Virus record (IMG/VR): IMGVR_UViG_3300046167_000888
DNA: 64,000 nucleotides
Strand: one strand, 5' to 3'
Origin: a virus
Shown: one piece after another, positions 10,656-55,511 of the stretch
Numbering within the stretch: the first letter of the stretch is position 1
Layout of the letters: every line of letters starts with the position of its first letter
The notes under the pieces: model-generated
What the model was told of the DNA's origin: nothing
Seen by the model: only the letters and a program-made list of their open reading frames with translations
The model's database searches: none
Translations under genes and position numbers: made by a program

Positions 10656-10661
10656 CCCTAT

Positions 10662-11387: not shown

Positions 11388-11424
11388 ACTTATCCTATAT
11401 CCATATTTATAATAAAAACATATT

Positions 11425-17253: not shown

Positions 17254-18738
17254 ATGGCAGTATATAAATTATTTCCTTCACAAGATGCTTCTATTTATAG
17301 TGGTTACCCCGCTATGAATACAGGTTTAGATCCAATTTTGGATGTAGCTAACTATGTAACGGAATCAAATCCCGTTGCTAGAGTAGCAAGATCAATTATC
17401 CAATTTGATCAAAGTGAAATAGAAAATGCTATTGATGTAATAGCTAAAGTAACTGGATCCGAATTTAATAGTTGGTCTGGAAGCTTAAAAGCATATGTTG
17501 CTAAAGCAAGTAACGTAATTATAAATTCTTATGTTGAAGTTTGGCCTTTATCTGGATCATGGAATAATGGTACAGGTCAATATTTAGATAATAAAGCAGG
17601 GACAAATGGTGTAAGTTGGGTTTATACTGATTATTCAGGATCAAATGAATGGGTAACAGCAGGATGGGTACCTTTAACAACAGGTTCATATTCTGGTAGT
17701 AATAATGCAGGTGGTGGAGTTTGGTATACAGGTTCTGGAACTTACTCTAATGTTAATAACGCTAACATGGGTGTTTCTCAATCATATAATTTAAGAAGTA
17801 CAAAAGATTTAGATATTAATGTAACTGATATTTTAAAAGTATGGTATTCATCATCTAAAGATTTAAACCCAGGTGAAATAGAAATTACAAATAATGGATT
17901 TTTAGTTAAATGGGCTAATGAACAGGAATTTGTTACTTCAAGTGCTGTATCCCCTCAACTAAGTTTCTATTCAGTTGATACAAATACTATATATCCTCCA
18001 GAATTAGAAATTAAATGGAGAGATTTTACATATTCTACTAGTAGTGGAGATTTTAAATTAGGTAGAACATTAACTGGTTCTTACCCAACTAATGAAATAA
18101 CAAGTTCAATTTCATGTTCTTATACACAATCATTACCAGCACCAACATATACAGGAGCAGGTACTGGAGCTACATTTGGAGCTACTTTTAATAGTTCTTC
18201 AATGTTAAATGTGTTTGTTAAAGATTTAGGATTAGGATATAAAGCTGGAGAAACATTAACTTGGTCAACAGCACAATTAAATGCTCTAGATGGCGTTTCA
18301 GGAGCAACTTCAGAAGCAATAGTTACAATTTCAACTTTTGATATACAACAACTGGATGTAATCAACACTCCAGACCTATATGTTGCTTTAGATAATAATG
18401 CAGGTGTATTTTATAGTGAAAGTATTAATGATTTTAGATTAAATGTTAGACCTGAATTTCCAGCTCGTACATTTAAAACATCTTCATTATATACTACTAA
18501 TCACGCTTTACCCTCGTCATCTTATTATGCTATAAAAGATTTAGATACAAACGAATTTGTAGTCGATTTTGATGAAGAATTCACACAGATAAGTTGTGAT
18601 GCTACATCAAGTTATTTCACTGTTTATATGAATGGCTTGGAGCCTGAAAGATACTATAATATCTTGATACAGACAGAGATTGATGGACAAACTATAGTAA
18701 TGGATGAAAATTATTATTTTAAAGTAGTAAACGGGTAA
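17254..18738 (+). CDS. Baseplate/tail-associated structural protein (DNRLRE-like N-terminal domain)
   Basis: DASIYSG...NTG, RSIIQFD, FYS...PELEIKW; rich in TGS/SGS. Confidence 0.65.
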   Translation: MAVYKLFPSQDASIYSGYPAMNTGLDPILDVANYVTESNPVARVARSIIQFDQSEIENAIDVIAKVTGSEFNSWSGSLKAYVAKASNVIINSYVEVWPLSGSWNNGTGQYLDNKAGTNGVSWVYTDYSGSNEWVTAGWVPLTTGSYSGSNNAGGGVWYTGSGTYSNVNNANMGVSQSYNLRSTKDLDINVTDILKVWYSSSKDLNPGEIEITNNGFLVKWANEQEFVTSSAVSPQLSFYSVDTNTIYPPELEIKWRDFTYSTSSGDFKLGRTLTGSYPTNEITSSISCSYTQSLPAPTYTGAGTGATFGATFNSSSMLNVFVKDLGLGYKAGETLTWSTAQLNALDGVSGATSEAIVTISTFDIQQLDVINTPDLYVALDNNAGVFYSESINDFRLNVRPEFPARTFKTSSLYTTNHALPSSSYYAIKDLDTNEFVVDFDEEFTQISCDATSSYFTVYMNGLEPERYYNILIQTEIDGQTIVMDENYYFKVVNG

Positions 18739-18741
18739 AAT

Positions 18742-19296
18742 ATGTCTCAAAATAGTAAAATTGATTTAGATAAAAAAGTGTATTCTAAAACAGAATACCC
18801 AAAAGTGATTGATACTAAATTCAATCAACTGGGTGTATCTTCTATTAATACACAAATTGAAGAAACATTTACTGTAACTGACTTTTTTAATGAATATAAT
18901 AATTTATTTTATGAAATTCCTGCTTTAGGAGACATTAATTCCCATGAATATTTAATTACTACAAGTACAGAGTATATAGGGTATGAAGCCAATGCAGCTG
19001 AAATAGCAGCATTACAAAATGAAATTACACAATTAAGAAGAGATTTATTACAAGCTCAATTAGACTTAGTAGAGGCAACAACAGGACAAAAATTAGATTT
19101 AGATATTAATTCAATAGATGAAGCTCAAATATCAGATTCAACTCAATTTAATGAAATTTTAGCTGAATTAGATAAACAACCTTCAAGTCCAACTGAAGCA
19201 AACACAACAGCTACAACAGTAGTAAGTAATAACCCAACAAATATAAGCAGTACTAGTGGGGCTGGTGGAACAGGAACTAGTGGTGGAGGATATTAA
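18742..19296 (+). CDS. Structural protein with coiled coil and low-complexity S/T/G tail
   Basis: EIAALQNEITQLRRDL coiled coil. Confidence 0.7.
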   Translation: MSQNSKIDLDKKVYSKTEYPKVIDTKFNQLGVSSINTQIEETFTVTDFFNEYNNLFYEIPALGDINSHEYLITTSTEYIGYEANAAEIAALQNEITQLRRDLLQAQLDLVEATTGQKLDLDINSIDEAQISDSTQFNEILAELDKQPSSPTEANTTATTVVSNNPTNISSTSGAGGTGTSGGGY

Positions 19297-19298
19297 AT

Positions 19299-22200
19299 AT
19301 GGAAGAAAGAGATAACATTATAATAAATCAAGTTGACCCATCAACTTTTGAATATCAGCAGTATACTGATAAAGATAATGCTTTAATAGCCTCATCTAAA
19401 TTAGATACTACTTTTACTTCATCTATTGATTATATAGAATATTATGCTTATGGTGAAGACCAAAGTTTAATTTTTCCTGCTCCTGGTGATAGCGTTTACC
19501 AATGCAAGAATTATAAAGTAATAGATGGTGATGTACTTATTTATCCTTCCCAAGATTTAGAAGATTTAGGATATGAAGAAGGTTCGTTCTTTTCAACATA
19601 TAATTTTTATAGAAAAAGATTAGGATCTTCTCCTGAAGTAAATTATTACATAGATGAAATAAGTGGAGATAGAACAGAAGTAAGGTTAAAAAGTAATGTT
19701 ATTGAAAATAATATTATAGTAACTTCAAGTTTAGATTTTATTCAATATAGAACTGATGCTGAATATTTTGTAGATTTTTTACTTAACTTTGGATCAGACC
19801 AACAAGTTATATGTAATAATATAGATTTAGATAATACTGATGTAGATAACCCTTCAGTACTTGTTAAATTATATGAACCACTTCCTGAAAACTTTGAATT
19901 AAAAGATGAATTATGGGTTGTAGAAGAAATATCTTCTCCCCAAGCATATAATGTAATATTTCCTGAAATTGAATTTGTACCAAACGATTTTCAATTAATA
20001 TCAGGTCCTAATTACAGTATACAAATAACACAACAAAGTGGAGAGGCATCACAAGAATTTAGCTTTGATACTTTAATTGCAAGTGATTTAACTAGTTCTT
20101 ATCAACAATTAAAAAATGTATTAGATAGAAAAGAAATTGATATATCTGTTGATTATACAGATTATAATAACTTTATTTACTTTTCTTCTGCATTATCTAG
20201 AATAGAAAATTTCTACAGTAAAGTAGGAATGATTCAATCTTCAAGTGCCGCGATTGCTGCTCTTCCAACAGATGCAGCTAATTACAGTTCAAGTAAATCA
20301 GAATTAACTACTAGTATTAGTACGTTAATTGCTAATTTTGATGGTTGGGAGTATTTTATGTATTTTAATAGTGGATCTGAAAAATCATACCCAAAATCAA
20401 ATACAGAACCTCCTTACATATTAGAACCAACTCAAAGTGCTATTGCACTAGATTGGTTAGGTAGTGCTGACCCGAGTAGTCCATATTATGGTGGTCAAGC
20501 CCTATCAGCTTCAAATTATGATTCAGAAAATGATAATTATCTTTATAATGCAATACCTGAATATTTAAGAGATGATACTGATAACCAAAAATATATTTTA
20601 TTTGTTGACATGGTTGCTCAACAATATGATAACACTTGGTTATACACAAAAAATATTACAACAAGATTTGATGCTGATAACAGATTAGATTTTGGTATTT
20701 CAAAAGATTTAGTAGCAGATGCTATTAGAGACTTTGGTGTTAAATTATATTCTAATAACTTTAATACTAGTGATCTATATACAGCATTTTTAGGACTTAC
20801 TCCATCAGGAAGTACATTCCCATTCCCAGAAATGACAGGCAGTTTCCCAACACCTTCTGGGTTTGAATACGTGAATACTGAAATATCTGCTTCAAATGAC
20901 ATAGTACCATTAGACAATGTAAATAAGTCATTATATAAACGAATTTACCATAATATACCGTATTTACTTAAAACTAAAGGTACAACAACTGGTTTAAGAG
21001 CATTAATAACATCATATGGAATCCCAGATACAATTTTAAGAATAAATGAATTTGGAGGTAAAGATAGAAACGAATTAAGAGATTGGGATTATAGTGAAAA
21101 TGTTTATAATTATGCTTTACATTTAGATGGTAATGCACAACTAACATCTTCATTTAAAACTAATCCAAATTGGCCTGAATATTCAGCTCAAGAAACAACA
21201 CCTAAATCAATACAATTTAGATTTAAAACTGACGGAATTCCAACAACATCACCTGCATATTATAACTTAGTTGTAGGAGATGATATTAGTGGTTCTCCTA
21301 GATGGTATATAACATTAGACTATACAGGCTCAGGAATGGATAGTGGTTCATATTCTGGATCAGTACCTAGCCAAAGTAATGCTTATGGTACTTTAAGATT
21401 TTATCCTGATGGTAATAATAACACTTCAGTTACTGCTAGTGTTGATGCTCCATTCTTTGATGGAGGATGGTGGTCAGTAATGGCTACAATAGATTATGAT
21501 GCTTTAAACACAGGTTCATTATTTGTAGCAAATAGAATAGGAGAAAAAATTGGATTTTCAGGATCAGATTCAGTAGGAGCTATTACTCAATATTGGAGAA
21601 CAACAGAAGATATTTACTTCCCAAGTACTGATGGTTTAGTAGTAGATTCAATTACACACCTTCCATTAACAGGTGCTTTACAAGAAGTAAGATATTGGGA
21701 TGTACCATTAAGTGAAAGCTTATTTTATGATTATGTAGTCAATCCTTATTCAACACAAGGTAATACAGTTAATATTGCACCTGATACATTAGTATTTAGA
21801 GCAGATTTAGGTACAGAATTAAATACAGGTAGTAGAGAATCAATCCACCCTAAAGTAACAGGTTCGTGGGCTACTACTTCATCATTTAATAGTGATAGTA
21901 TTTTCTATTTAACTGGTTCATTTATTCAAAATACAGAAAGTATTTATTTGAACCAAGTACCAGGAGGTATTAAAAATAGAATTTCAGATAAAATAAAAAT
22001 TGATCAGGAAGTATTACCAACAGGTTCTACATTAAGTCCATATAGATCAATTCAACAATCAGTTTATCCAAGTGGAAGTAATCCAAGTATTAATTATTTG
22101 GAAGTAGCATTTTCACCTACTGATCAAACAAACGATGATATTATAGCACAAATTGGTGCATTTAATTTAGGAGATTATATTGGTGATCCAAGACAAATAT

Positions 22201-24908
22201 CTGAATCTGGATACTCATACCCACAATTAGATGCTTTAAGAGATGCTTATTTTACAAAATATATAAACAGTTATGATGTAAATGATTTTGTTAGATTAAT
22301 AAAATTCTTTGATAATTCATTATTTAAAATGATAGAAGATTTTACACCTGCTAGAACAACATTAAGTTCAGGTGTAGTAATTAAACAAAACTTATTAGAA
22401 AGAAATAGACAAGCACCTCCATCAATGTCATTTACTACTCCTGAATATTCAGGTAGTGTAAAATCATTTCCTAGAGATTATCAAGTACCAAATTCAAGTA
22501 GCTCATATCCAGTAGATGGAATTATAAGTGGTTCTTCAATTCAAGTATTTAGAGGAGGAACTGGTGGTGTATTTGAACCATACAATAGTATTTTTACTGC
22601 ACCTATAAGCCAATCAGCTACAGAAACTTGTTTATTAGGATATTTCTTTACATCATCAAATGATTTATTAGATCCTAATTCAAATGTAGGTGAAACAGTA
22701 TTTGAAAATACAATAGGTAACTCTTCAAATACTATGAGTATAAATGTTGAAGGTACTACAGGACAAAACTATACAGACTTTTTAACATTAGTATATTCGG
22801 CTTCATTAGAAGGAGAAGTATTTGTAGAAATATCATCAGCTTCAGTTAATATTACACATCAAATAGATAAAACAGTATTTTTTGATGGGTATGGAACTGA
22901 TGAATTTGGTATAGCACCTTATGGTGATTATACTAATATGTTTGAATTTTACTTAACTGTAACAGAAAATAACCCTCCAGCATCATTTAATGATTTAGAT
23001 GAAATAGATATTTGTTTTACTGTAGGAGGACAACCATATAGTGGAAAAACAGCAGCTGAAGTTTCAGCATCAAATGCATGGGAAAGATTCCCAGATTTCC
23101 AACAAACATGGAGTGAATCAATAGTACCAAGTTTAGGTATTACTCCTCCATTTGATCAGTCTAAAACGGGATCTAATCAAGTTGGTCCTGTTAATTACCC
23201 AAGAATTGATCAGAGAGAATTTTATAATGGTGAATTCGGAAATGCAATACAGGTAGGAGCAAATGAAATATGTGATGCCTTTTTCGGTCAAGATGCTATT
23301 ATAGATTATTTCTTTAGAATCCAATGGTTTGATTCAGATTCATTCTCAGAAGAAAATTTCTTATCAGTTAATAATTTACCATTAGCTGGTAACGTATGGA
23401 TGTGGACAGATGTTTCACAAAGTTCATTTACAGGAATACCTGAAGGACAAAATTTAAATATAGTACAACAACCATTTTCAACAATAGGACCAGGTCAAGG
23501 TTCACCTGCAATAACAGCGAGTTTATCTCCAAGTAGTACTACAGGAACAGGAACTGGTTTAGTAGTAGGATTAACCCAAAGTTTTATAGGATCAGGACCA
23601 AATGTTGAAATAAATGCTTATGTTGAACAAACAGGTTCAGGATATGCTGTTAATGAAGTTTTAGATTTTGATTCTGCTGATTTAATTGCTGCCGGATTTG
23701 ATTCACCAAACACTGACCAAGCTTTAAAAATATTATTAGGTAATAATGATATAGTAACAACTACATCATCAATATCTAACAAAGTAAAATATATTAAAAT
23801 GTCTAATACTGATGTAAATGGAGTTTCTATACTTCCATTTATACAGGATTCTGATTATGTAACATTTAATTTAACTGGTGCTCAAGATTATTTAGGTAAT
23901 TTAATACAAGGATACCAAACATGGTATATTTCAAATGCTTCGATTCAAAATGATAATAATCCTGCTACAGAAGATGCTACATTATTAATTATAAACCAAC
24001 CACCATCTTCAGATGCTGTTACTTCATATGACTCATTATTTTATGATTTAACATTTAGTGCAAGTGGTGTATTTAGTTATTATGCTACAGCATCAGGAGA
24101 AGATCCAAATGTAGTACCTAGTACAGGAATTACTCAATCAGTAGCACAAGGATATTTCCCACCAGTACCTACATTCCCTACTGAATCATTCTTTAGAGGA
24201 TGGGGTAAATCAAATTATTTTGAAGGAAATGCAGATGGAACTGTTTATAGAGTAGAAACTGGAAGTGGATTTAGTACAGACACATTAGGAAACTTTAATA
24301 CAGGATCCGTAGAAATGGATTTTGATAGTTCAATACCATACACATCAAGTATAATACCATGGTTTATTAATGCTCCAGCATCTACATATCATGCTTTACA
24401 GAATTCATCATTAGTAGGAAGTTTATCAGGGTTTGCTTTACAAATGTATACAGGTTCATTAACAGCATCTGCTGTTCCAATTGGTCCTTCATTTACAGTA
24501 TTAGAAGCACCAACTCCAGAACTTACTACAGTATTACAAGGTCCAATATTCACACCACCACCAGCATCATTGTATACACAATGTAGTAGTACATTAACAC
24601 AATTCCAGCAAGTAAATTATTTTGCAGGACAAATTACAATAACGTGTACAGATCAAAGTTTACAATGGTTTACAAATATAAGTTATCAAGATGGAAATGG
24701 GTGGATAACTTTAAGTGCAACTTCGGGAACAGGAGATGCTATTATTACTGTAAATGTAGCTAATGATACTAGCTCTCAAAACTCACCGTTAGCCCCTAGA
24801 TCGGCAACAGTGACAGTTAATTCATTAACAAGTCCTGGTAATAATTACAGTTGTACTGTAACACAACAAGTATATAGTAATAACGGGTATGCACCACCAA
24901 TCCCATAA
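19299..24908 (+). CDS. Large baseplate wedge protein (gp7-like), with LamG-like and C-terminal BACON domains
   Basis: LYNAIPEYL, PYLLKTKGT..GLRALI..YGIP, FTPART motifs; LQEVRYW LamG-like; C-terminal W..LSATSGTG..RSATVTV..VTQ. Confidence 0.7.
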   Translation: MEERDNIIINQVDPSTFEYQQYTDKDNALIASSKLDTTFTSSIDYIEYYAYGEDQSLIFPAPGDSVYQCKNYKVIDGDVLIYPSQDLEDLGYEEGSFFSTYNFYRKRLGSSPEVNYYIDEISGDRTEVRLKSNVIENNIIVTSSLDFIQYRTDAEYFVDFLLNFGSDQQVICNNIDLDNTDVDNPSVLVKLYEPLPENFELKDELWVVEEISSPQAYNVIFPEIEFVPNDFQLISGPNYSIQITQQSGEASQEFSFDTLIASDLTSSYQQLKNVLDRKEIDISVDYTDYNNFIYFSSALSRIENFYSKVGMIQSSSAAIAALPTDAANYSSSKSELTTSISTLIANFDGWEYFMYFNSGSEKSYPKSNTEPPYILEPTQSAIALDWLGSADPSSPYYGGQALSASNYDSENDNYLYNAIPEYLRDDTDNQKYILFVDMVAQQYDNTWLYTKNITTRFDADNRLDFGISKDLVADAIRDFGVKLYSNNFNTSDLYTAFLGLTPSGSTFPFPEMTGSFPTPSGFEYVNTEISASNDIVPLDNVNKSLYKRIYHNIPYLLKTKGTTTGLRALITSYGIPDTILRINEFGGKDRNELRDWDYSENVYNYALHLDGNAQLTSSFKTNPNWPEYSAQETTPKSIQFRFKTDGIPTTSPAYYNLVVGDDISGSPRWYITLDYTGSGMDSGSYSGSVPSQSNAYGTLRFYPDGNNNTSVTASVDAPFFDGGWWSVMATIDYDALNTGSLFVANRIGEKIGFSGSDSVGAITQYWRTTEDIYFPSTDGLVVDSITHLPLTGALQEVRYWDVPLSESLFYDYVVNPYSTQGNTVNIAPDTLVFRADLGTELNTGSRESIHPKVTGSWATTSSFNSDSIFYLTGSFIQNTESIYLNQVPGGIKNRISDKIKIDQEVLPTGSTLSPYRSIQQSVYPSGSNPSINYLEVAFSPTDQTNDDIIAQIGAFNLGDYIGDPRQISESGYSYPQLDALRDAYFTKYINSYDVNDFVRLIKFFDNSLFKMIEDFTPARTTLSSGVVIKQNLLERNRQAPPSMSFTTPEYSGSVKSFPRDYQVPNSSSSYPVDGIISGSSIQVFRGGTGGVFEPYNSIFTAPISQSATETCLLGYFFTSSNDLLDPNSNVGETVFENTIGNSSNTMSINVEGTTGQNYTDFLTLVYSASLEGEVFVEISSASVNITHQIDKTVFFDGYGTDEFGIAPYGDYTNMFEFYLTVTENNPPASFNDLDEIDICFTVGGQPYSGKTAAEVSASNAWERFPDFQQTWSESIVPSLGITPPFDQSKTGSNQVGPVNYPRIDQREFYNGEFGNAIQVGANEICDAFFGQDAIIDYFFRIQWFDSDSFSEENFLSVNNLPLAGNVWMWTDVSQSSFTGIPEGQNLNIVQQPFSTIGPGQGSPAITASLSPSSTTGTGTGLVVGLTQSFIGSGPNVEINAYVEQTGSGYAVNEVLDFDSADLIAAGFDSPNTDQALKILLGNNDIVTTTSSISNKVKYIKMSNTDVNGVSILPFIQDSDYVTFNLTGAQDYLGNLIQGYQTWYISNASIQNDNNPATEDATLLIINQPPSSDAVTSYDSLFYDLTFSASGVFSYYATASGEDPNVVPSTGITQSVAQGYFPPVPTFPTESFFRGWGKSNYFEGNADGTVYRVETGSGFSTDTLGNFNTGSVEMDFDSSIPYTSSIIPWFINAPASTYHALQNSSLVGSLSGFALQMYTGSLTASAVPIGPSFTVLEAPTPELTTVLQGPIFTPPPASLYTQCSSTLTQFQQVNYFAGQITITCTDQSLQWFTNISYQDGNGWITLSATSGTGDAIITVNVANDTSSQNSPLAPRSATVTVNSLTSPGNNYSCTVTQQVYSNNGYAPPIP

Positions 24909-24922
24909 TATTTATAGTTAAT

Positions 24923-27900
24923 ATGTCAAACATTCAATATTACTTAAACGAAGAAAAAAATATGATTTTAGTTTCTGGTTCTTCAACCAAAGCTGGAATG
25001 AATGCTCTTTTGACTTCAAGTAAGGATCCTAGTGCAACTTTTGACCCTAATTTAACGGCAAAAATTTCCTCACTAGGAATGAATACTACTTATGTAGTAC
25101 AGAATGGTAATGATAATACTTCTTTTAATATAAATGATAATCAAGAATTATGGGTATATAGAGGTTATAATCAACAAGGAGGTACCGATGGTAACACATA
25201 TAGATATAACCCACATTTACACAGACCATATAAGGCATATATTTTAACAGAAACTGGTTCAGGTATACCAGGATTCCCTTATCTTCCTACAGGTAGTGCT
25301 ATTAATACTGATGCACAAAGTAATACTGGAGGAGATATTCCAAGTAAATATATTGAAAGACAATTATCTATTGTAGGGAATACTAGTAATGCAATTACTT
25401 CTAGTGAAGATAGTGGTTCATTTACAATATATGATGATACTAGAGGAATCCATCCATTTGTATTTACAAAATATCACACATTACCAGTTCCTAATGGTGT
25501 TGGTGCAGCTTATTTTGTATATAGAGAAGGAGAAAATTTTCAAGATCCAAGAGCATTACAATTTAATACTTCAACAGCATCCCCTTCTAACCCAGGAACA
25601 GATAAAGTAGCCTTTAATAGTTCTACTATAAACAGTATTTCACAAGTTTATATAGAAAACGATTTAGCTGTTGCCCAAGTATTAGGACCATTATCAGCAT
25701 CAATAAACAGAGGAAAAGATGGAGGTTCATTTAGAGTAGATAATGGCAATAATAATGAATTTATTGAATTTAATATTGATACTATTGATGTAAATGGCTT
25801 ACTTGCTTCTTATTGGATTATAAATGTATCATCTCCATCAACTTCAACCCCATTTACTTTATTTGGAAATAATGCTCCAATTAGTGCTTCAGTTTTAGAT
25901 TTTCCAATGTTTAAAACTACTATTGAACAACAACAAGGAACATCTCAAAATATTACTCCTTATTTAGGGGGTGGAGTTACATTTAGAACAGGATCATTTT
26001 CATATACTAGTAGTACTTTTACTCAAACAGATGGTAATGGAAACCCAGCATCGGGTTCTTCACAATTTGGTCTATATGCTGATTATGATTTTTATGTCAC
26101 ATATGAATGTACTAATACATCACCTGTTGATTTAACAATATTTTTTACAGGATCTGGTGGTTCTTTTGATTCTAATTATTTTATAGTATCCCCACAATCT
26201 GGAGCAGCATTTACAGCTTTAGTAGGTTCAGTTTCTGCCTCTGATGGTGGTACAGGAGGTATTGGTAATTTTACTAGATTTAATGATGGAACTTATGTAG
26301 GTCAAAGATTTAATAATTCAATTAACAACCCATCTAGACCAGGTGTTCCACCTAGTGATATATTTGCTACTAGATGGAGTGATGTTTATATTTCATTTTC
26401 ACAATCATTATCTGAAAGTATAGATGGTTTATATATTTTTAACCAACTACCTCAAAATGATATTCAAGTTACTGCTTCTGTTTTATTAGCTGCTTGGACA
26501 GGTAGTGATACAGGATCAAAATATGGTACTGATGAATATGGTACAGCGGAATATGGAGAAGGTGAAACTGGAGAAGGACCAACATGGCCAACAGCATCAA
26601 TAAGAATATATACTGGAAGTTATCCAACTTCAGTACCAACAACATTAGATAATTTCTTAACAGAATCAGTATACCAAAGTAGATATATTTACACACAAAG
26701 TCAAGGTGTTCCTGTAACATTTAGTTTTTCAATACCATCAGAGTCTATAGCAATTAAAGATTGTTTATCAATGGCGTTGCATGTATCTTCAGGATCTGCT
26801 CCTTCACAATCAGTTGAAAATGGTTTAGTAATAAGAAATTATAGTTTAGAATTTAATACACCTACTCAAAGTGCTCAAGGTGATGGTAGAGTACCAACAT
26901 TTATAGAAAACGCATTTGAAGGTACATTAGGATTTAGTAATACTCCTGATTGTCAACCTTTATATAATAATGTTACTGAAGAAAGAGAAAATGGAAGAAT
27001 ACAAATAGTAGAAGCTCAACCAACAGCTTCAGGATTTGGTGGTTTCCAACCCTTAAATTTCCAACCGATATTATCTGGATCAGCTGAAAAATCAACAGTA
27101 CCAGAATCTTATTATACTACATTAAGACAAATTAATCCTAGATATGATGGTTCAAGAACTACTGCTGATAAAATAAACTCAATAGATGGTTTAGGAGGTG
27201 AAGATGGTACTGAAAGAGGATTTGGATTATTACCTGTAATTGATTATCAAACAGCATATTTTGCTTATTGCGATCAGGTATTAGACCCATATCCAGTATT
27301 AAATAACGTAACACAATTTAATTTAAAATATTTAATAAACGATTCAGGTGATGCTTTACAACCTAATTTATCACCTTATACCGCTTTTGATGTAGAAGGA
27401 AGTTGGACAGAAGGAGAAGGAGCAAGAGTATCTATTAATCAAGTATCAGGTTCATCCCAATTTGACCAATTAAATGGATTAAATCCTGTAAAATTAGTAG
27501 CTAAAGAACCTGTAGCAGTATTATGGTCACAAACGGGTGCAAATACATATGCTGGTAGTGCTGTTAGATCGGTTCTATTCCATTAGCAGGTGCTCCTGGT
27601 AGTTGTATCAACATTTACTCTCTTCGTTCTTGAGCTACAACATGGCAGTTCAAGGTAGGGACTTCTGATGCTGCAAAATCAAGGATGATAAAGTTGTACC
27701 TTTAACAATTCAGCATATGTCACGAGCGAGCTGCAACAGCGGGTCTATTTACATTCTCCACTTCATCTAGATATGGGTCTGATAGCTTCTGGAACTGTAC
27801 AGCAACCAAGCTTCCCTCATCAGTAATTGTCGTCTATTGAATCGACTGCACCAAGTGGGAATGGTGGTTCAGGAGCAGGGGCAAACGTAGCAGCACTATA

Positions 27901-29387: not shown

Positions 29388-29429
29388 CATATTTATAACA
29401 TATAACAATATTTATATAAAAATAACACA

Positions 29430-30098: not shown

Positions 30099-30105
30099 TA
30101 AAAAT

Positions 30106-31166: not shown

Positions 31167-31172
31167 GAATGA

Positions 31173-32242: not shown

Positions 32243-32279
32243 AACATTATATATTTATAATAAAATATAACCTTAGACC

Positions 32280-34072: not shown

Positions 34073-34104
34073 TTAAAAAAATTAATTAAAAAAAATAAAA
34101 TAGG

Positions 34105-35142: not shown

Positions 35143-35242
35143 AATTAGAAAAAATATTACAAATACTAAAATTTAGTATTAAGGTTGCATACGTATAAAT
35201 GATAAAACAGAATATTAAATTAACTTAAAAAACAATTAATCA

Positions 35243-36838: not shown

Positions 36839-36851
36839 TAAATGAGTGTAA

Positions 36852-37079
36852 ATGAGTTTCAAAAGTGGTGAAATAATTATTAAAGGTAAAAAAACTACCT
36901 CTATAAATAAAGATGAAATGGCAGACTCTGAACAGGGTCTGCCATCTTTATCAAAAGAAGAAATAATGTTTCTTCTAAAAATAATTCAACAACATGATTT
37001 TAAAGGTAGAGATATAGAAATTCTTTACAATACAACGTTGAATCTTCAAAAACAGTACATACATTTAAGTAATCAATAA
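36852..37079 (+). CDS. Small helical protein, possible fibre assembly chaperone
   Basis: LSKEEI..L......KGRD......LQKQ, similar to the next ORF. Confidence 0.65.
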   Translation: MSFKSGEIIIKGKKTTSINKDEMADSEQGLPSLSKEEIMFLLKIIQQHDFKGRDIEILYNTTLNLQKQYIHLSNQ

Positions 37080-37088
37080 TATTTAAAT

Positions 37089-37262
37089 ATGGATGAGTTA
37101 TATACATTAGAACAATTAACATTAAGAGAAATTAAAGCCCTAAGAAAAGGTTTAGAGTTCATTCAAATAAGTGGGATAGATGCAATGTTTATGGGTATGT
37201 TACAAGCTAAAATTGATAAACAAATCGAACAATTAGAAAAACATATACAAGATAAACAATAA
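37089..37262 (+). CDS. 57-aa helical protein, paralog of the preceding ORF (not in ORF track)
   Basis: MDELYTLEQLTLREIKALRKGLEFIQISGIDAMFMGMLQAKIDKQ... Confidence 0.65.
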   Translation: MDELYTLEQLTLREIKALRKGLEFIQISGIDAMFMGMLQAKIDKQIEQLEKHIQDKQ

Positions 37263-37297
37263 GCCTGTTTCTCATATTTATAACCATATAATTTATC

Positions 37298-40200: not shown

Positions 40201-42371
40201 AGGACAAAAAGGTACTAAAGGTGATACTTTAGAAAAAGGACAAAAAGGTGCACAAGGTGAAACTGGAGAAAAAGGAGCACAAGGTGAAACAGGACAGAAA
40301 GGAGCACAAGGTGAAACTGGTACAAAAGGTGCCTCAAGGAGAAGATGGTGTAAAAGGAGCACAAGGAGAAGATGGTGTAAAAGGTGCTCAAGGAGAAACT
40401 GGAGAAAATGCTCCATTACAAGGTAATGTAGACAATAATCTAGTTACTATGACTGGTGGGACAGCATTATCAGGTTCAGCCAAATTTACCTATGATGGTA
40501 TAGATACTGTTTTAGATGGTACTAGTGGAGGAGGTCATTTTATAACTAAAACTCCATCACAATATAGTGCAGTTTCTGAATATGGATTAGGACATGAAGT
40601 ATTTTCTGCAAATTTAGATAGCGGTTTAATTGCTACATTTAGTAGTTCTTTTGCTACATCAGATAATGTACCAATAATTCAAATGGTAGATAAATCTACT
40701 GGTGGTACAGGAACTAATGTTGGTACATTTAGATTTAATAAAGACACTGGTCATTTTATATTAACACCTAGTGGTTCTGGTAAAACAACTTTCCTTTTAC
40801 TTACAGGTAGTTTATCTGTTTCACAATCTGTATTTTTCCCAGGAGTTGCTGAAAATACTAATAACCTTAAAACTTTAATGATAGACCCTACTTCGGGTAA
40901 ATTAGGATATACAGGTTCATATGGTGGAGGTGGAGGTGGTACTCCAATACAAGGAAACGTTAATAATAACGTATTAACAGCTACAGGAACAACATCTATA
41001 TCAGGTTCAGCTAAATTTACTTATGATGGAGCAGGTGATGTTCACTTAGAAGGTAAATTACAAATTGACCAACAAACTATAACTATAGCTGGAGGTAATG
41101 TTTCATGGAATGTAAATAATGGCTCAAATGCTACTGTTACATTAGGATCAGGTACTAATACATTAGCAATGTCAAATTGGGAAACAGGTGATACTGGTGT
41201 ATTAGTTGTTAAACAAGATGGAACTGGAGGAAGAACATTAGATATTGATTTAAGTGGTAATACTGTTTATTTAGGTAATACTTCATATACACCTTCAACA
41301 GCTGCTAATGCGGTTGATGTATTAGGTTGGTATTATGATGGTTCAAAATATTATGTAACAATAGGTTACGGTGATTCATCAACAGTAGGAGCTAAAGGTG
41401 CTCCAGGAGATTCAGGAGCTCAAGGTGCAGCAGGACCAAAAGGGGTTACAGGACCTCAAGGTGATGATGGTGCTCAAGGATTAGCAGGACCAATTGGTAA
41501 TCAAGGAAATACAGGTCCACAAGGTGCAACAGGACCTCAAGGCTTATTAGGACCAATAGGAAACATTGGACCAATTGGTAATACTGGACCTCAAGGTGCT
41601 GATGGAAATATAGGACCAATAGGAAATATAGGACCTATAGGAAACATTGGACCAATTGGTAATACTGGACCTCAAGGTGCAGACGGTAATATTGGACCAA
41701 TAGGTAATATAGGACCAATAGGAAATACAGGTCCTCAAGGTGCAGATGGAGATAAAGGACCAGCTGGTGATGCAGGACCTCAAGGTGCAGACGGTGGTAT
41801 TGGACCAATTGGTAATACAGGACCACAAGGTGCAACAGGAACACAAGGTGCAGTAGGTGGATCAGGAGCTGAATTTACAGTAACAGGAACAACCACAGAT
41901 GGTGTTGTTACTTTTGATTCAGCAAATGCTTTAACTACTGAAGCAAATATGACATTTGATGGTACTACAGCATATATTAATGGTGCTTTAGGTGTAGGAA
42001 CAGATAATCCAACAACTGTAGGTTTAATAGAAGCTACTAATGATGTTGTAGCATATTACTCATCAGATGAAAGATTAAAAGAAAATATTAAACCTATTCC
42101 ATGGGCATTAGATAAATTAATGAAAATAAATGGTGTAACATTTGATTGGAAACCATTAACTGAAGAACAAAAAATACATATTCATGGACATGAAGGGCAT
42201 GATGTAGGTGTAATAGCTCAAGAAATAGAAAAAGTATTACCTGAAGTTGTAACTACAAGAGATAATGGATATAAAGCTGTTAAATATGAAAAAATAGTTG
42301 CTCTATTAATTGAAGCTATTAAAGAACAACAATCAGAAATAGATCAATTAAAAGATAAAATTAATGGCTAA
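37298..42371 (+). CDS. Collagen-like fibre protein B (~1690 aa) with C-terminal Peptidase_S74 chaperone; +1 frameshift at ~40332
   Basis: Four Gly-X-Y blocks, two globular inserts, SSDERLKENI...GVIAQEIEKVLPEVV...AVKYEKIVALLIEAIKE. Confidence 0.85.
37472..41865 (+). repeat. Collagen Gly-X-Y coding repeats B (four blocks: ~37472-37812, 38192-39450, 39824-40410, 41388-41865)
   Basis: GAQ/GET/GEK/GQK/GPI/GNI triplets. Confidence 0.9.
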
Positions 42372-43629
42372 TCTTAATTTTTTCAGAATAATGGCCGGTA
42401 ACGGTTCTAATGTTAGTTCTCAAGATATTCCTTGTAATGCTGGAAGTATTAATTTTGATGGAGGACCAGGTATATTTTATGCTACCGCTGTTGTATTAGG
42501 AACTGGTATAGGCCCTATAACTGCATCATTTGAAGCTCGAAATGTTCCAGATGGATTTAGATTAGTATGGAGCGGATCTACAGTAGCAAATTCTTTATTT
42601 GTAGGAGATCGATTAGACACAGCAAGTTTATATAATGGATATACAGGGTCAATAAGTAATGTAACTTCTTTAACTCGAAAAAATTGGAACCAACAAGCAG
42701 ATACTTTTGTAAATGCTTCAGCAGAAAGTGTAACTTATACTAGTGCTTCATTCCCTCCATTTCCTGGCAATCCTTTCACAAAAACAAGAGGAAATACATC
42801 TACAGTTGTAGGTGAAAGAGTTAATGGTCAAGGAAACCATGGGGCACAAAAAGGCGTACTTAATGCTTTTCCCCAATTTTCATCTTCATGTACAAATGGA
42901 CAAGTTAAATTATGTTTTTTTAAACATACAACTGAACCAACAGAATTTGAACTAATAATTGATGGTCCAGATGGTGGTACACTTTGGGATTTACTTAGTT
43001 TAACTTGCCCAGGTAATGATACTTCACTCCATTCTTCTTCAATTATGGATAAAGATGGTGATATAGTTGAAATATACCATACATCACCATCATTTGACTT
43101 AGATGTAGGAATGACATTATATGAAAATAGTGCATTAACTACTAAATTTATATCAAGTGGGACTTATAGTACTAGTTCATTTTGGGGTAGTGATAATTCT
43201 ATGTTAGTATCAGGTAGTACTATATTAGGAACAGCATATCCTTTTAATGGAGGTAGTGGTATATGCTTTAAATCCGCTTTAAATACAGGATATTCCTATA
43301 TTACATTAGCTGATGATGGAGTAATTACTGCTAGAAGTTGTACTACAACATCATTCCCATTAGCTGATGGTTTAACAGAATTCTATGTAACAGATCAGGC
43401 GAGTAAACTTCCTTTCGCATGTCAGCAACCAATTACAACAACACGTTTCCACGATGGTTCAGGATTAATACCTGTTGTAGGTGATATAGTGTATACTGAT
43501 AGTGGAGGAACTACAGTATTAGCCAATTCAAAAAGAGGAGCTTCTTCTTTTAATTCAGGTAATTCAATTTATGGTTTTGAAACTGATAGTAATGGAGATG
43601 TTACCGATACGCAAACCTGTATACCATAA
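42364..43629 (+). CDS. Cys-containing fibre tip/receptor-binding-like protein
   Basis: Follows the S74 fibre gene; two C-terminal repeats of type H....VG..(L/V)Y..S..TT, each closed by Cys. Confidence 0.55.
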   Translation: MANLNFFRIMAGNGSNVSSQDIPCNAGSINFDGGPGIFYATAVVLGTGIGPITASFEARNVPDGFRLVWSGSTVANSLFVGDRLDTASLYNGYTGSISNVTSLTRKNWNQQADTFVNASAESVTYTSASFPPFPGNPFTKTRGNTSTVVGERVNGQGNHGAQKGVLNAFPQFSSSCTNGQVKLCFFKHTTEPTEFELIIDGPDGGTLWDLLSLTCPGNDTSLHSSSIMDKDGDIVEIYHTSPSFDLDVGMTLYENSALTTKFISSGTYSTSSFWGSDNSMLVSGSTILGTAYPFNGGSGICFKSALNTGYSYITLADDGVITARSCTTTSFPLADGLTEFYVTDQASKLPFACQQPITTTRFHDGSGLIPVVGDIVYTDSGGTTVLANSKRGASSFNSGNSIYGFETDSNGDVTDTQTCIP

Positions 43630-43631
43630 TT

Positions 43632-44150
43632 TTGGAGTTTTTAGATTATCAAGGTAAAGAATTTAATGTTTTTAAAAACAATGGGGTTACAATCATGCAA
43701 TTTAAAAATAATGTTTTTTTAAATGATGATAAAATATACACTAAATTATTTTTAGGGGAATGTGATAAATGTAATCCATTTTATAAAGATTTTTTTAATA
43801 ATATTAAATTTGATACAGTATTAGTAGTAGGATTAGGACTTGGTTTAATACCTCAAGAGTTAATTGAAATATACAAATGTAGTAAAGTTGATTGTCTAGA
43901 AATAAGTCAAGAAATGATTGATTATACTCATAACTCAGGTCATTTAAATAAAAATATAAATCTTATTCAGGGTGATGTTTATAAGTACTCTACTTCTGAT
44001 ATGTATGATTTGATTATAATTGATACTATTTGGCAAAAACATAATATGAGTGATGATCAATGGAACATATTAGTAAAAAAATATAAACCAAATTTAAATC
44101 CTAAAGGCGCAATCTTCGCTCCAGTAAAACAAAAGTATTTTTCAATATAA
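43632..44150 (+). CDS. SAM-dependent methyltransferase (spermidine-synthase-like fold)
   Basis: VLVVGLGLG, CLEIS, IQGD, YDLIIID and LNPKG motifs. Confidence 0.8.
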   Translation: MEFLDYQGKEFNVFKNNGVTIMQFKNNVFLNDDKIYTKLFLGECDKCNPFYKDFFNNIKFDTVLVVGLGLGLIPQELIEIYKCSKVDCLEISQEMIDYTHNSGHLNKNINLIQGDVYKYSTSDMYDLIIIDTIWQKHNMSDDQWNILVKKYKPNLNPKGAIFAPVKQKYFSI

Positions 44151-44260
44151 CTTGTTTTCTCCTTATTTTTTCCATACATTGTTCATATGTATGACTATAT
44201 TATAGGCCATAACGGAAGTGGGCTCAAGGAGTAACCAACCATAATTAAAAAGATTTTAAA

Positions 44261-47200
44261 ATGCCAAATTGGAAAAAAGTAATAGTTTCAGGAAGTGATG
44301 CCTCCCTAAACAATATCTCAAGTGAAAATATAACAGTAGAATCTACTGTTACTTCTTTAAATGTTAATACCACAAACATTTCAGCATCAAAATATTTTGT
44401 AGAACCAACAGGTTCAGGTTCAGTACCTGCAAAATCTTACCAAATTCCATTTGTTGATACATCTTCAGCAGACAATTATGGCGGCTTATATAAAGATAAT
44501 CAATCCAAATTAGAGTGGACACCAGCAGGTGAATTAACTGTAATTGGAAATATTGTTGCTGGTGGAACAGGATTCATAACTGGTAGTAATGTTAATGCAT
44601 CAACAAATGTAACAGTAGGTGGTCAAACCAATACTGCTAATTTAAGAATTAACTCAATCCCAACAGGTTCAGATCAAAATAAAATTGTAGTTGTTGGAGA
44701 TGATGGTAGTACATTTTTTAGAACAAATTTATCATTAACAGGTGCTCAAGGAGCAACTGGACAACAAGGTTTAACAGGTGCAATAGGACCAAAAGGAGCA
44801 CAAGGTGATAAAGGTGCAATAGGACCACTTGGTCCTCAAGGTAACGCAGGTAATGATGGTGATGATGGAGCACAAGGTACAACAGGACAAAAAGGTGTAA
44901 CAGGACCATTAGGACCTCAAGGTAATAAAGGTGATGTAGGACCTCTTGGACCACAAGGTAATCAAGGTGTTCAAGGTACAACCGGACAAAAAGGTGTAAC
45001 TGGACCACTTGGACCTCAAGGAAATCAAGGTAATGCAGGTAATGATGGAGCTCAAGGTACAACTGGAGCAACAGGACCTTTAGGACCACAAGGAAATCAA
45101 GGAAATACAGGACCACAAGGTAATGTAGGACCAACTGGTGATGATGGTGAAAAAGGTGATACTGGTGCTCAAGGCACAACAGGACCACTTGGACCTCAAG
45201 GTAATCAAGGTAATCAAGGTAACGTTGGACCAACAGGAGCACAAGGTGCAGTAGGAGCACAAGGAGATACAGGACCAACAGGTGCAACCGGATTACAAGG
45301 AACAACAGGTGCATTAGGACCAATTGGACCTCAAGGTAACCAAGGTAACCAAGGTGTACAAGGTACAAATGGAGAAAAAGGAGCAACAGGACCATTAGGA
45401 CCTCAAGGTAATCAAGGTATTCAAGGACAAAAAGGTGAAACAGGACCACTTGGACCACAAGGTAATGCAGGTAATGATGGAGCTCAAGGTACAACCGGAG
45501 CAACAGGACCTTTAGGACCACTTGGACCACAAGGTAATCAAGGTAACCAAGGTGTACAAGGTGCAACAGGACCACAAGGAACTAAAGGACAAAAAGGTGA
45601 AGTAGGAGCTAAAGGTGATACAGGACCTCAAGGATCTAAAGGTTCAACAGGACCATTAGGACCTCAAGGTAACCAAGGTGCACAAGGTACAACAGGTACA
45701 ACAGGACCTCTTGGACCACAAGGTAACGTAGGACCAGCAGGTACAGATGGAGATAAAGGTGCAATAGGACCAACAGGTGCTCAAGGAAATCAAGGTAACC
45801 AAGGTATACAAGGTACAACTGGACAAAAAGGTGCAACTGGACCTTTAGGACCACAAGGTAATCAGGGTAACCAAGGTATACAAGGTATAACAGGTGCAAC
45901 AGGACCTCTTGGACCACAAGGTAATCAAGGAAATACAGGACCAACAGGTGCTCAAGGAACAACAGGTGCATTAGGACCAATTGGACCTCAAGGTAACGTT
46001 GGACCAACAGGAGCACAAGGTAATGCAGGTAATGATGGTGAAAAAGGTTTAAAAGGTGAAGTAGGGGCACAAGGTAATAAAGGTGCAACAGGACCATTAG
46101 GACCTCAAGGTAATATAGGTAATGTAGGACCTCAAGGTGAAAAAGGTGCAACAGGACCTCAAGGAAATACAGGTGCTCAAGGTAATCAAGGTAACCAAGG
46201 TAACGTTGGTGTACAAGGTACCACAGGTGCTCAAGGTAACGTAGGACCTGAAGGACAAAAAGGACCACAGGGTACAACAGGTACAACAGGACCACAAGGT
46301 AACCAAGGTAATAAAGGTGCTACGGGACCATTAGGACCATTAGGACCTCAAGGTAATCAAGGAAATACAGGACCACAAGGTAATAAAGGACAAAAAGGTG
46401 AAATAGGTGCTCAAGGTACAGATGGTAACTTCGGTGGTAACTCATTCGATTATACATTTGATACAAGTACAACAGCAGGAGATCCAGGCCAAGGTAAAAT
46501 AAGATTATCATCAACAAATCAAAATACTTCACTTGAAGGATATATTGATGCAACAGATGATGATGGGAAACGATATTCAATCAACACTTGAAACATTAGA
46601 TAGTGTTACTTCAGCTATTAAAGGTCACATTAGAATCTCAAATAGAACAGATGCAACACAATTCTTAACATTCGCAATTACAGATCTTCAAGATCAAGGT
46701 GATTGGTGGCAGTTAGATTTAACTAATGAAGCAAGTTCAGCAACATCACCATTCTCAAATAACGAAGATATTATTTGTTCATTTGTAGCAGTAGGTGATA
46801 AAGGAGATAAAGGACAAAAAGGACAAACTGGAGCAGTAGGACCAACAGGACCACAAGGTAACGTAGGACCAACAGGACCACAAGGAAATAAAGGACAAAA
46901 AGGTGAAGTAGGAGCTCAAGGTAACGTAGGACCTCAAGGTAACGTAGGTGCTCAAGGAGCTACTGGTTCAACTGGTGCTCAAGGAAATAAAGGTAGCTTA
47001 GGACCACAAGGTAATGTTGGTGCTCAAGGAGCTACTGGAGCAATTGGACCACAAGGTAATACAGGTGCACAGGGTAATGTTGGACCAACAGGACCTCAAG
47101 GAAATAAAGGTGCAACAGGACCTCAAGGTAATACAGGTGCTCAAGGTGCAACAGGACCTCAAGGTAACCAAGGTAATCAAGGTAATGTAGGACCAACAGG

Positions 47201-48711
47201 ACCACAGGGTGAAAAAGGTGCGATAGGACCACAAGGTAACTGTAGGACCTAAAGGACCACAAGGTGGACAAGGTAATACAGGTGCACAAGGTGCTACTGG
47301 AGCTGTAGGACCAATTGGACCACAAGGTAACGTTGGACCTCAAGGAAATAAAGGACAAAAAGGTGCTGCAGGTACAAATGGAAATAAAGGAGCTCAAGGA
47401 GCTACAGGATCAACAGGACCACAAGGTAATGTAGGACCAACAGGACCTCAAGGTAACGTAGGACCTAAAGGACCACAAGGTGGACAAGGTAATACAGGAC
47501 CTACAGGTGCACAGGGTGCAACTGGAGCAATTGGACCTCAGGGTAATACAGGACCACAAGGTGGAATTGGACCTCAAGGTAATAAGGGACAAAAAGGACA
47601 AACAGGTGCACAAGGTAATGTAGGACCACAAGGTAACGTTGGACCAACTGGTGCACAAGGTGCTACAGGATCAACAGGACCTCAAGGTAACGTAGGACCA
47701 ACAGGACCTAAAGGACCACAAGGTAATGTAGGACCAGCAGGTAATAATGGAAATAAAGGAGCTCAAGGAGCTACAGGATCAACAGGACCACAAGGTGGTA
47801 CAGGACCACAAGGTGGAATTGGACCTCAAGGTAATAAAGGACAGAAAGGTCAAACAGGAGCACAAGGTAACGTAGGACCTGTAGGACCAACTGGAGCACA
47901 AGGTGCGACAGGACCTCAAGGTAACGTTGGACCTCAAGGTAACGTTGGACCACAAGGTAACAAGGGTCAAAAAGGACAAACTGGTGCTCAAGGTAACGTA
48001 GGACCTGTAGGACCTCAGGGTAATACAGGACAAAAAGGTCAAAAAGGTCAAACAGGTGCTCAAGGTAACGTTGGACCAATTGGACCAATTGGAAATGTAG
48101 GACCAACTGGACCTAAAGGACCACAAGGTAACGTAGGACCTCAAGGTAATAAAGGACAAAAAGGTGCCACTGGTGGACAAGGTAACGTAGGACCTGTAGG
48201 ACCTGTAGGACCAACAGGACCTCAAGGTAATAAGGGACAAAAAGGTCAAAAAGGACAAACAGGTGGACAAGGTAACGTAGGACCTGTAGGACCAGTAGGA
48301 CCAGTAGGACCATCAGGAGGATTTACTACAAACTCAAATGCTCAAGTAAATAGTTTAGGTGTTGGAGTTTCAGCCTCAGGTACAGCAGGTACAATTAGAG
48401 CTACAAATGATATTATTTCATATTACTCATCAGATAATAGATTAAAAGATGTAAAAGGTTTAGTTGAAAATGCATTAGAAAAAGTAATACAATTAAATGG
48501 TGTACAATTCGATTGGATAGCTAAAGAAGGTATACATGAAAATACAGGACACGATATAGGAATTATAGCACAAGAAATTGAAGCATTCTTCCCAGAAATT
48601 GTAGTAACAAGACCAAATGGATATAAAGCGGTTAAATATGAAAAATTAGTAGCAGTACTTATTGAAGCAATAAAAGATTTGAACGAAAAAATAGAAAAAT
48701 TAAATAAATAA
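44261..48711 (+). CDS. Collagen-like fibre protein C (~1480 aa) with C-terminal Peptidase_S74 chaperone; +1 frameshifts at ~46566 and ~47241
   Basis: Two long Gly-X-Y blocks, one globular insert, SSDNRLKD...GIIAQEIE...[18 protein letters not shown]; the last segment lacks its own ATG, so it is absent from the ORF track. Confidence 0.85.
44741..48316 (+). repeat. Collagen Gly-X-Y coding repeats C (~44741-46424 and ~46794-48316)
   Basis: [18 protein letters not shown] triplets. Confidence 0.9.
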
Positions 48712-48714
48712 AAA

Positions 48715-49257
48715 ATGGGTTTACTAATAACAGGGTCTTTTAAAGACATGAACGAAGCAACATATGATAGCTTATATTGTAGAATTGACCATTATCAACT
48801 AATAAAATCATTAGGATATGTGGCTACTACAATTGGATATTATGTTTCTAAAGAAGCATCCGAACCGATGTTTCCTACATATCAAGAAGATTATCATGAC
48901 TCAGACGCTAGTGGTTTTGTAGCAGGTGTAATTAATACTTCAACTGAAACTGAATTTGCAGCTGATCATTATATTGAATTTCCGTTAACACAAAGTGAAC
49001 AAGTTGTAGTAACTACATATTCATCTTCTTTTGAAGATAGATTAGTTGATTATATTGATTATGATGATGACGGAAATGAAGTCACAAAACAAAGAAATCA
49101 AAAAATTGAAATTATTACAACGGGTAGTGAAGAAGTTACTAAATCTAGAATTAATATGGATTTAATAACAGGAAGCGCTTATGAATATGCCTATAATCAG
49201 TTAAAATCTCGTTTAATAGAAACATACGGTGACAATAATGTTAATGATTTAATATAA
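48715..49257 (+). CDS. Fibre-associated small protein
   Basis: MGLLITGS start and YEYAYNQLK end; follows the fibre gene. Confidence 0.65.
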   Translation: MGLLITGSFKDMNEATYDSLYCRIDHYQLIKSLGYVATTIGYYVSKEASEPMFPTYQEDYHDSDASGFVAGVINTSTETEFAADHYIEFPLTQSEQVVVTTYSSSFEDRLVDYIDYDDDGNEVTKQRNQKIEIITTGSEEVTKSRINMDLITGSAYEYAYNQLKSRLIETYGDNNVNDLI

Positions 49258-55509: not shown

Positions 55510-55511
55510 CT

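Follow-up and report, generated by a model that had tools for sequence, protein, structure and literature searches.

A candidate [S/T]-x-S O-glycosylation sequon on outer virion proteins of aquatic T4-like phages

We analyzed a 64,000-nucleotide stretch of viral DNA (IMG/VR record IMGVR_UViG_3300046167_000888, called the window at its full length) for the tripeptide [S/T]-x-S, most often [ST]GS, in its baseplate and fibre proteins. In the window and its relatives the motif is enriched, depends on the order of its residues, is selected at the amino acid level and conserves its two hydroxyls; it is restricted to outer proteins and to certain phage lineages, and it co-occurs with a gene similar to gp90 of Flavobacterium phage vB_FspM_immuto (immuto), the second member of an adjacent pair of GT4-like glycosyltransferase (GT) genes. 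We infer from this pattern that residues of the motif may be modified, that the GT pair may be the agent and that the resulting coat might serve a purpose on the virion. That [S/T]-x-S is an O-glycosylation sequon on the exposed parts of outer virion proteins, with the GT4 pair priming and the surrounding gene island extending the glycan, is a reading of the sequences to which we give about an even chance. The original prediction proposed a recognition sequon on surface proteins modified by GTs encoded in the window; its first part, a selected outward-facing element, stood up to the analysis, and its second part, the in-window enzymes, did not.

The features of the window that carry the motif, together with the motif-free marker gene next to them, are as follows.

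15410–17251, plus strand: gp6-like baseplate wedge protein, motif-free, used as the marker for collecting relatives.
17254–18738, plus strand: 494-aa peripheral baseplate protein (p494), directly after the gp6-like gene; 8 [ST]GS, 7 of them in residues 67–161.
19299–24908, plus strand: 1869-aa giant baseplate/fibre protein (p1869); 21 [ST]GS, all beyond residue 357.
24923–27586, plus strand: 887-aa fibre or outer baseplate protein; 13 [ST]GS.
30227–32242, plus strand: four open reading frames (ORFs) of small fibre-associated proteins, equivalent to two single genes in relatives; 7 [ST]GS in total.
34870–35142, plus strand: open-frame fragment; three TGS in 20 residues.
35243–36838, plus strand: 531-aa virion structural protein, its C-terminus homologous to a "structural protein" of immuto; 7 [ST]GS.
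48715–49257, plus strand: 180-aa protein just upstream of a fibre gene with an S74 chaperone; 3 [ST]GS.

The 60 ORFs of the window with a length of at least 100 aa were translated, and each protein was shuffled 1000 times. The [ST]GS counts were 8 in p494 (shuffle mean of 0.98, z 7.5), 21 in p1869 (3.1, z 10.3), 13 in the 887-aa protein (2.1, z 7.7), 7 in the 531-aa protein (2.55, z 3.0), and 3 in the 180-aa protein (0.15, z 7.1). These five counts agree exactly with those of the original prediction, and the shuffled controls show them to be a strong enrichment; the three TGS within 20 residues of a fragment, also predicted, were confirmed in the open frame at 34870–35142. The window scan found no [ST]GS in the gp6-like protein, in the upstream baseplate/hub ORFs, or in any ORF between 49265 and 63998, confirming the predicted absence of the motif from gp6 and from the enzyme region.

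Nine peripheral proteins of the window (4922 aa) were then pooled. They contained 61 [ST]GS against 11.5 in shuffles (z 15.5) and 133 members of the class [ST][GASQ]S against 37.8 (z 16), and TGS (z 10.5) and SGS (z 8.8) were the two most enriched of all tripeptides. Enrichment depended on order: TGS reached 5.8-fold and SGS 4.9-fold, compared with 1.3-fold for SGT, 0.4-fold for TGT, 0.8-fold for GSS, 0.6-fold for SSG, and 0.2-fold for both GTS and TSG. Given the lack of enrichment in the permuted orders, the excess is not explained by small residues that cluster in loops, and a locally S/G/T-rich composition was ruled out on the same ground. The tripeptides TSS, TAS, TQS, SAS, and SQS were enriched 2.5–4-fold, in line with the earlier remark that such variants are frequent. 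A first-order (dipeptide) model predicted 29.2 [ST]GS, and the 2.1-fold excess over this value rules out a dipeptide effect. When glycine-centred tripeptides were considered, a preceding S/T was linked to a following S (odds ratio of 6.6, P 2e-14). Some of the counts in the collagen-like proteins (e.g., GETGSQG in the ORF at 32280) lie within G-X-Y repeats and are trivial.

At the DNA level, 57 occurrences in seven proteins were written in 35 different 9-mer spellings, which track overall codon usage; thus, selection acts on the protein and not on the DNA, and a DNA-level motif was ruled out. The sequences flanking the motif were no more alike than chance (mean BLOSUM score of −14.0, against −13.4 ± 0.5 for random S/T-centred windows), and the proteins that carry it have almost no detectable homology with each other. 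The occurrences are therefore independent and not copies of one module, which excludes a shared repeat and agrees with the claim that the motif stands in unrelated contexts. Two established sequons were also tried and rejected. The Bacteroidota sequon D-[ST]-[AILVMT] occurred 20 times in the pooled proteins (24.0 ± 4.6 in shuffles), with Asp immediately before the motif in only 4 of 61 cases, so the predicted distinctness from this sequon was upheld; N-x-[ST] was not enriched in the peripheral proteins.

More than 580 relatives of the gp6-like protein were found in IMG/VR. The nearest deposited ones belong to immuto (44% identity) and Microcystis phage Mel-JY01 (42%), and the uncultured 484-kb megaphage LR756508.1 encodes one with 37% identity. 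We sampled the 80 closest gp6 loci of IMG/VR and 80 more distant ones (gp6 identity of 36–100% over both sets); about 100 of the more than 160 loci were scorable. Across the 80 closest loci, ORFs downstream of gp6 contained 1504 [ST]GS versus 243 expected (6.2-fold), gp6 and the ORFs upstream of it contained 76 versus 130 expected, and control permutations stayed near 1. The scorable loci of the more distant set all had 3–10-fold values, with the locus of LR756508.1 alone being low (5 vs. 1.8).

Scans of all ORFs revealed significantly enriched ones in the window, in immuto, in Mel-JY01, and in the related genomes G001 and G005. None of the 440 ORFs of LR756508.1 was enriched, and its ratio of 1.37 equalled that of control permutations (1.26). 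T4 had 19 motifs versus 27.3 expected, without excess in gp34 and gp37. Rhodothermus phage RM378 (NC_004735), too distant to be detected by gp6, had 51 versus 18.3 expected (control permutations of 0.87); several hypothetical proteins encoded at 64–76 kb of its genome showed 4–11-fold [ST]GS (66276–67547: 5 vs. 0.46). RM378 carries the motif into a phage of a thermophile. A blastn search of the window's baseplate region against deposited phages gave no match, and a single-protein search with gp6 of LR756508.1 returned three close relatives only. Literature searches found neither the motif nor glycosylated virions reported for this group of phages.

In the genome-wide scan of immuto, the enriched ORFs were those of fibres, a 373-aa protein (12 vs. 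1.3), and the tail sheath. All seven motifs of the sheath protein lay in residues 62–275, outside the conserved core (residues 431–701); the N-terminal sheath domains of T4 are the exposed ones. The major capsid protein (1 vs. 0.59), portal, tape measure, and tube of immuto were not enriched, and the tube/completion protein had none. Judged by this distribution, the motif favours the exposed regions of the outer proteins.

Orthologs of p494 (61 sequences) and of the first 1110 residues of p1869 (41 sequences) were aligned. As read from the sequences, the full motif is hydrophobic-[S/T]-x-S-hydrophobic, where x is G more often than A, S, or Q: hydrophobic residues were favoured at position −1 (57%) and position +3 (43–53%) over a background of 32%. 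The motif columns were conserved in position, with position 1 remaining S/T and position 3 remaining S, and the middle residue swapped among G, A, S, Q, and occasionally T, E, or D. Several sites of p1869 were near-invariant: SGS at residue 358 was found in 41 of 41 orthologs, at 503 in 39, and at 686 in 38; residue 854 began TGS in 37 orthologs and SGS in three more. Position 1 of the p1869 motifs was retained as S/T at a rate of 0.75, compared with 0.61 for other S/T, and position 3 as S at 0.74, compared with 0.55 for other S (P 0.01–0.04); the motif Gly was retained at 0.65, compared with 0.72 for other Gly. The picture was the same in p494. By these alignments the constrained elements are the two hydroxyls and not the glycine, which is the reverse of what a Gly-dependent tight turn would require.

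Homologs of p494 and p1869 in LR756508.1 could be aligned over hundreds of residues, and the aligned sites lacked the motif; these folds therefore do not need it. In an AlphaFold2 (AF2) model of p494 (predicted local distance difference test, pLDDT, of 69), 5–6 of the 8 motifs were situated where a strand or helix enters a loop and the rest elsewhere. The N-terminal domain of this model resembled carbohydrate-binding beta-sandwiches (Foldseek matches 8wab/7vbo, TMt 0.60–0.67), and the C-terminus of p1869 was weakly BACON-like.

The enzymes that track the motif are, by gene co-occurrence, a conserved GT4-like pair encoded outside the window. The glycan island of immuto opens with the adjacent genes gp89 (480 aa, GT4) and gp90 (436 aa). 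The pair was present and adjacent in Mel-JY01, G001, G005, and a complete 197-kb genome (G009), and searches of IMG/VR with gp90 gave 80 loci, all of which had a gp89-like gene directly upstream. In a set of 50,697 deposited phage records, gp90-like proteins were found in immuto and Mel-JY01 only (E < 1e-10), and gp89-like proteins in immuto, Mel-JY01, RM378, and LR756508.1 only. RM378 encoded a diverged adjacent pair (9165–11893; 484 and 425 aa), the first member of which matched at E 1e-32 and the second by a weak profile match (E 1e-4, hhalign probability of 54% over 335 columns). A lone gp89-like gene was found in LR756508.1, with no gp90-like gene anywhere in its genome, and T4 had neither. 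Thus, every complete or long motif-positive genome examined contained the pair, and the two motif-negative genomes lacked gp90. Viewed by gp89-like lineage, motif excess and gp90 occurred together in three (the immuto/window clade, Mel-JY01, and RM378) and were both absent from the fourth, LR756508.1.

A 168,095-bp contig from ENA (KAGO19-1 scaffold_4) was 98.4% identical, without gaps, to positions 1–4474 of the window. It encoded the GT pair about 21–24 kb upstream of the position matching the window start, and the two proteins were 70% and 66% identical to those of G005. After the pair followed a 145-aa gene, several GT2 genes, an epimerase, a UDP-glucose dehydrogenase, and a nucleotidyltransferase/mannose-phosphate isomerase; a fusion of GT25 with a 2-oxoglutarate (2OG) oxygenase and more genes, including another 2OG oxygenase, were found further along. 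The glycan island on this contig spans about 29 kb (about 40.8–69 kb), and only its last 5 kb lie within the window:

564–5066, strand unassigned: downstream end of the glycan island, with two methyltransferases, a ConA-like lectin, and a second GT25.

At its head (GT4, GT4, a small ORF, and a 207-aa GT2), the island had the same gene order as in immuto, and the remainder differed, as would be expected if a constant primer carried outer sugars that vary.

Pfam recognized only Glycos_transf_1 in the gp89-like protein and nothing in the gp90-like one. The model of the gp90-like protein had a GT-B fold (pLDDT of 90), with E293 and E301 invariant. The E-x7-E motif is thus kept, and the second member of the pair is probably catalytic rather than a chaperone. 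The best solved match to both members was B736L of chlorovirus NY-2A (PDB 3oy2; phmmer E 2e-8; Foldseek E 1e-16, TMt 0.71; identity of about 16%). In Mel-JY01 (PP395634, 83444–84929), an in-frame TGA divides the gp89-like gene into two, each annotated as a "putative glycosyltransferase"; this may reflect a pseudogene, recoding, or an error of sequencing, and the motif excess of this phage was intact despite the split.

Taken together, these data suggest the following scheme. In a very large set of aquatic T4-like ("Far-T4") phages, φ-[S/T]-x-S-φ (φ, hydrophobic residue) would be a short recognition element placed convergently on outward-facing virion proteins, namely those of the outer baseplate and fibres, to which relatives add the outer sheath domains of the tail. 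One or both of its hydroxyls would be O-glycosylated in the host cytoplasm, most likely by the adjacent conserved phage pair of GT4-like, GT-B-fold enzymes, and the primer sugar would then be extended by the variable GT2, GT25, and sugar-nucleotide enzymes of the same island. The outcome would be a glycan coat over the tail periphery, with a possible role in protection, solubility, or adhesion.

The original prediction placed the responsible GTs in the window, downstream of the fibre genes:

50043–55922, plus strand: GT/hydroxylase cassette, with DUF6734, GT25, a 2OG-Fe(II) oxygenase, and a weakly GT9/Glyphos-like protein.

This cassette, taken to 57784, adjoins the fibre genes and holds GT25, DUF6734, and GT-A-like proteins besides the weakly GT9-like one, all of which speaks for it as the source of the enzyme. 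GT25 matched PF01755 at 53389–53982 (E 1e-16), and the 2OG oxygenase was encoded at 53960–54664; the GT9-like match was below threshold (E 0.059) and had no counterpart in relatives. No homologs of the genes at 50043–55922 were found in G001 (85% complete), in G005 (equivalent region covered), or in the complete genomes of Mel-JY01 and immuto, and all four phages have the same motif excess. The cassette is therefore not part of the motif system, and the proposal that its GTs glycosylate [ST]GS fails, equal enrichment without the cassette having been named in advance as grounds for refuting it; we regard such glycosylation as very improbable. The cassette sits with inserted collagen-like fibre genes instead. 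Collagen repeats were found in 32280–33770 (Pfam Collagen, E 1e-29), and the proteins of 37298–47252 contained 18–27% Gly. The giant collagen-like fibre genes (32280–47252), the gene with the S74 intramolecular chaperone, and the cassette (49265–55922 for these last two) form one insertion, bordered by the conserved small fibre genes on one side and by the GIY-YIG/primase genes on the other, which was absent from G001, G005, immuto, and Mel-JY01. The hydroxylysine glycosylation of collagen employs enzymes of the GT25 and 2OG oxygenase types. Given these types and the position beside the collagen-like fibres, we read the cassette as serving those fibres and not the tripeptide: by gene content it is a red herring for the motif, and the block looks like a predicted phage module for collagen hydroxylation and glycosylation. 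As in collagen hydroxylysine glycosylation, genes for a GT25 and a 2OG oxygenase occur in the window together with candidate G-X-Y substrates.

A different explanation dispenses with covalent modification: φ-[ST]-x-S-φ could cap strand ends or hairpins in the manner of an ST-turn or serve as a mark for a lineage-specific folding or assembly factor. The hydrophobic preference at −1 and +3, the near-invariance of several sites across the 41 orthologs, and the strand/helix-to-loop junctions at which 5–6 of the 8 p494 motifs lie in the AF2 model are consistent with it. The homologs in LR756508.1, however, fold without the motif, and T4 fibres have no excess of it. Glycine, on which a turn might depend, is the least constrained residue and is replaced by Ala, Ser, or Gln; position 3 is Ser and not Thr, and reversed or permuted orders are not enriched. 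Moreover, the motif occurs in unrelated sequence contexts and varied predicted secondary-structure settings, and a universal structural preference would not stay within the outer proteins of one phage group. We consider this explanation unlikely. Less likely again is that the hydroxyls receive another group (phosphorylation, acylation, or another O-linked modification by some phage or host enzyme) or that the pair of hydroxyls contacts a ligand such as host polysaccharide or water, the GT pair then serving another target. The conservation of the hydroxyls, the restriction to outer proteins, and the lineage specificity leave the chemistry unspecified, the N-terminal domain of p494 resembles polysaccharide-binding modules, and only a correlation ties the GT pair to the motif. 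Against this, among candidate enzymes such as kinases and acyltransferases, none was seen to accompany the motif; the sole family found to do so is the GT pair heading an island of sugar-nucleotide genes. Ligand contact also fails to explain the outer domains of the sheath and the many unrelated proteins.

Several points weigh against O-glycosylation of the motif by the GT pair as well. The co-occurrence of pair and motif is confounded by phylogeny and draws on a small number of independent cases, in essence a single loss (LR756508.1) and a single distant positive (RM378); the pair could also act on DNA, lipid, or host polysaccharide, and it sits on the 98%-identical contig and not in the window itself. 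A structural role would likewise fit the many sites that combine strong positional conservation with hydrophobic flanks, and the p494 model is only moderately confident, with the motifs in mixed contexts. A PHROGs search with the enriched proteins of RM378 gave a single match, to a virion structural protein. No mass spectrometry, glycan staining, or structure was found in the literature for any member of the phage group.

The closest functional parallel is the virion O-glycosylation of mycobacteriophages (Freeman et al. 2023, Cell Host Microbe, as described in PMC12619734). As far as that description goes, cytoplasmic GTs of the phage are proposed to decorate exposed virion proteins, and the glycans are located on C-terminal Ser/Thr/Gly-rich tails of the major capsid and tail-tube subunits. 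Both systems would combine phage-encoded GTs with virion proteins that carry the acceptor sequence. By the same account, they differ in that the acceptors here are internal tripeptides of baseplate, fibre, and sheath proteins, the immuto capsid protein being unenriched, and in that glycosylation of the mycobacteriophages is chemically proven, whereas the [S/T]-x-S system is known from sequence.

The GT pair can also be compared with GtfA/GtfB, the cytoplasmic priming complex of serine-rich repeat adhesins of Gram-positive bacteria, which has Ser/Thr acceptors in S-x-S-like sequence (PMC6973325). In both cases, two adjacent GT-B-type proteins head a variable GT cluster (the pair was adjacent in 80 of 80 loci here), and the downstream GTs vary among strains there as the island varies here. 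However, DUF1975 was not detected by Pfam in our pair, whose top structural matches were generic GT4 enzymes and B736L and not GtfA/B; GtfB is non-catalytic, whereas the gp90-like protein keeps E-x7-E; and the acceptors here are isolated tripeptides in folded proteins rather than long low-complexity repeats.

The autotransporter systems TibC/TibA and Aah/AIDA-I perform cytoplasmic Ser-specific O-glycosylation at many sites in short loops between the beta-strands of a surface protein. Autotransporter heptosyltransferases are related to GT9, whereas the conserved pair here is GT4-like by both families and structures. Chloroviruses glycosylate their own capsid protein independently of host machinery, with N-linked glycans at atypical sequons. 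Although B736L of NY-2A is a virus-encoded GT and the best solved match to both members of the pair, the identity is about 16%, and B736L is itself a putative GT whose own substrate is unproven. O-glycosylation in Bacteroidota, the presumed host phylum, also uses a three-residue sequon, but one that is not enriched here (20 vs. 24 expected); it is a periplasmic system, whereas virion assembly takes place in the cytoplasm. The proposed [S/T]-x-S system would resemble those of mycobacteriophages, GtfA/GtfB, and autotransporters in its working and is a member of none.

Some other features of the window were also recorded. Each of the ORF pairs 30227–30877 with 30825–31166 and 31246–31881 with 31940–32242 corresponds to one intact gene in immuto (337 and 357 aa, respectively) and in G001, so that by sequence comparison the two small fibre genes at 30227–32242 are frameshifted or mis-assembled in the window; their orthologs in immuto, G001, and Mel-JY01 are motif-enriched too. 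Between the first collagen-like gene and the 531-aa protein (33770–35240), short fibre-like TGS-rich frames in differing reading frames are probably the remains of a decayed or frameshifted fibre gene. At 8269–8463 on the plus strand, a 64-aa ORF encoded a homolog of ribosomal protein bS21, recognized as Pfam Ribosomal_S21 on the ENA contig of 98% identity; aquatic phages are known to encode S21. Between the fibre/cassette block and the primase, at 57835–58323, lay the gene of a GIY-YIG homing endonuclease of the SegE type, and this position is occupied likewise in G001, G005, immuto, and Mel-JY01. The 345-aa propeller-like ORF at 56113 had no match in a phmmer search against PDB.

The window holds apart two glycan systems that had been merged earlier: the in-window cassette of the collagen-like fibres and the motif-linked GT pair outside it. 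Whatever the chemistry, the motif is a practical marker for annotating outward-facing virion proteins in this group. Generalized, the genomes suggest a still more tentative picture, a little short of an even bet, in which the aquatic T4-like radiation from immuto to RM378 would share an [S/T]-x-S sequon, a GT4 pair would O-glycosylate dozens of fibre, baseplate, and sheath sites, and variable islands would build on a constant primer. To our knowledge, mycobacteriophages are the only phages whose enzymes are proven to glycosylate the virion, and there the glycans affect recognition by antibodies. If the picture is true, no virion glycosylation defined by a sequon would have been known before in phages of Gram-negative hosts, and the system would be among the most abundant for protein glycosylation in the ocean. 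If the motif is a sequon, a simple sequence rule would predict the modified proteins and residues for uncultured phages of marine and fresh waters, whose genomes number in the hundreds to thousands, and a cultured model, immuto on Flavobacterium sp. LMO8, is available. Such a sequon would explain the large, fast-evolving sugar-synthesis islands of these phages and would bear on the protease resistance of their fibres, on non-sticking, and on host recognition.

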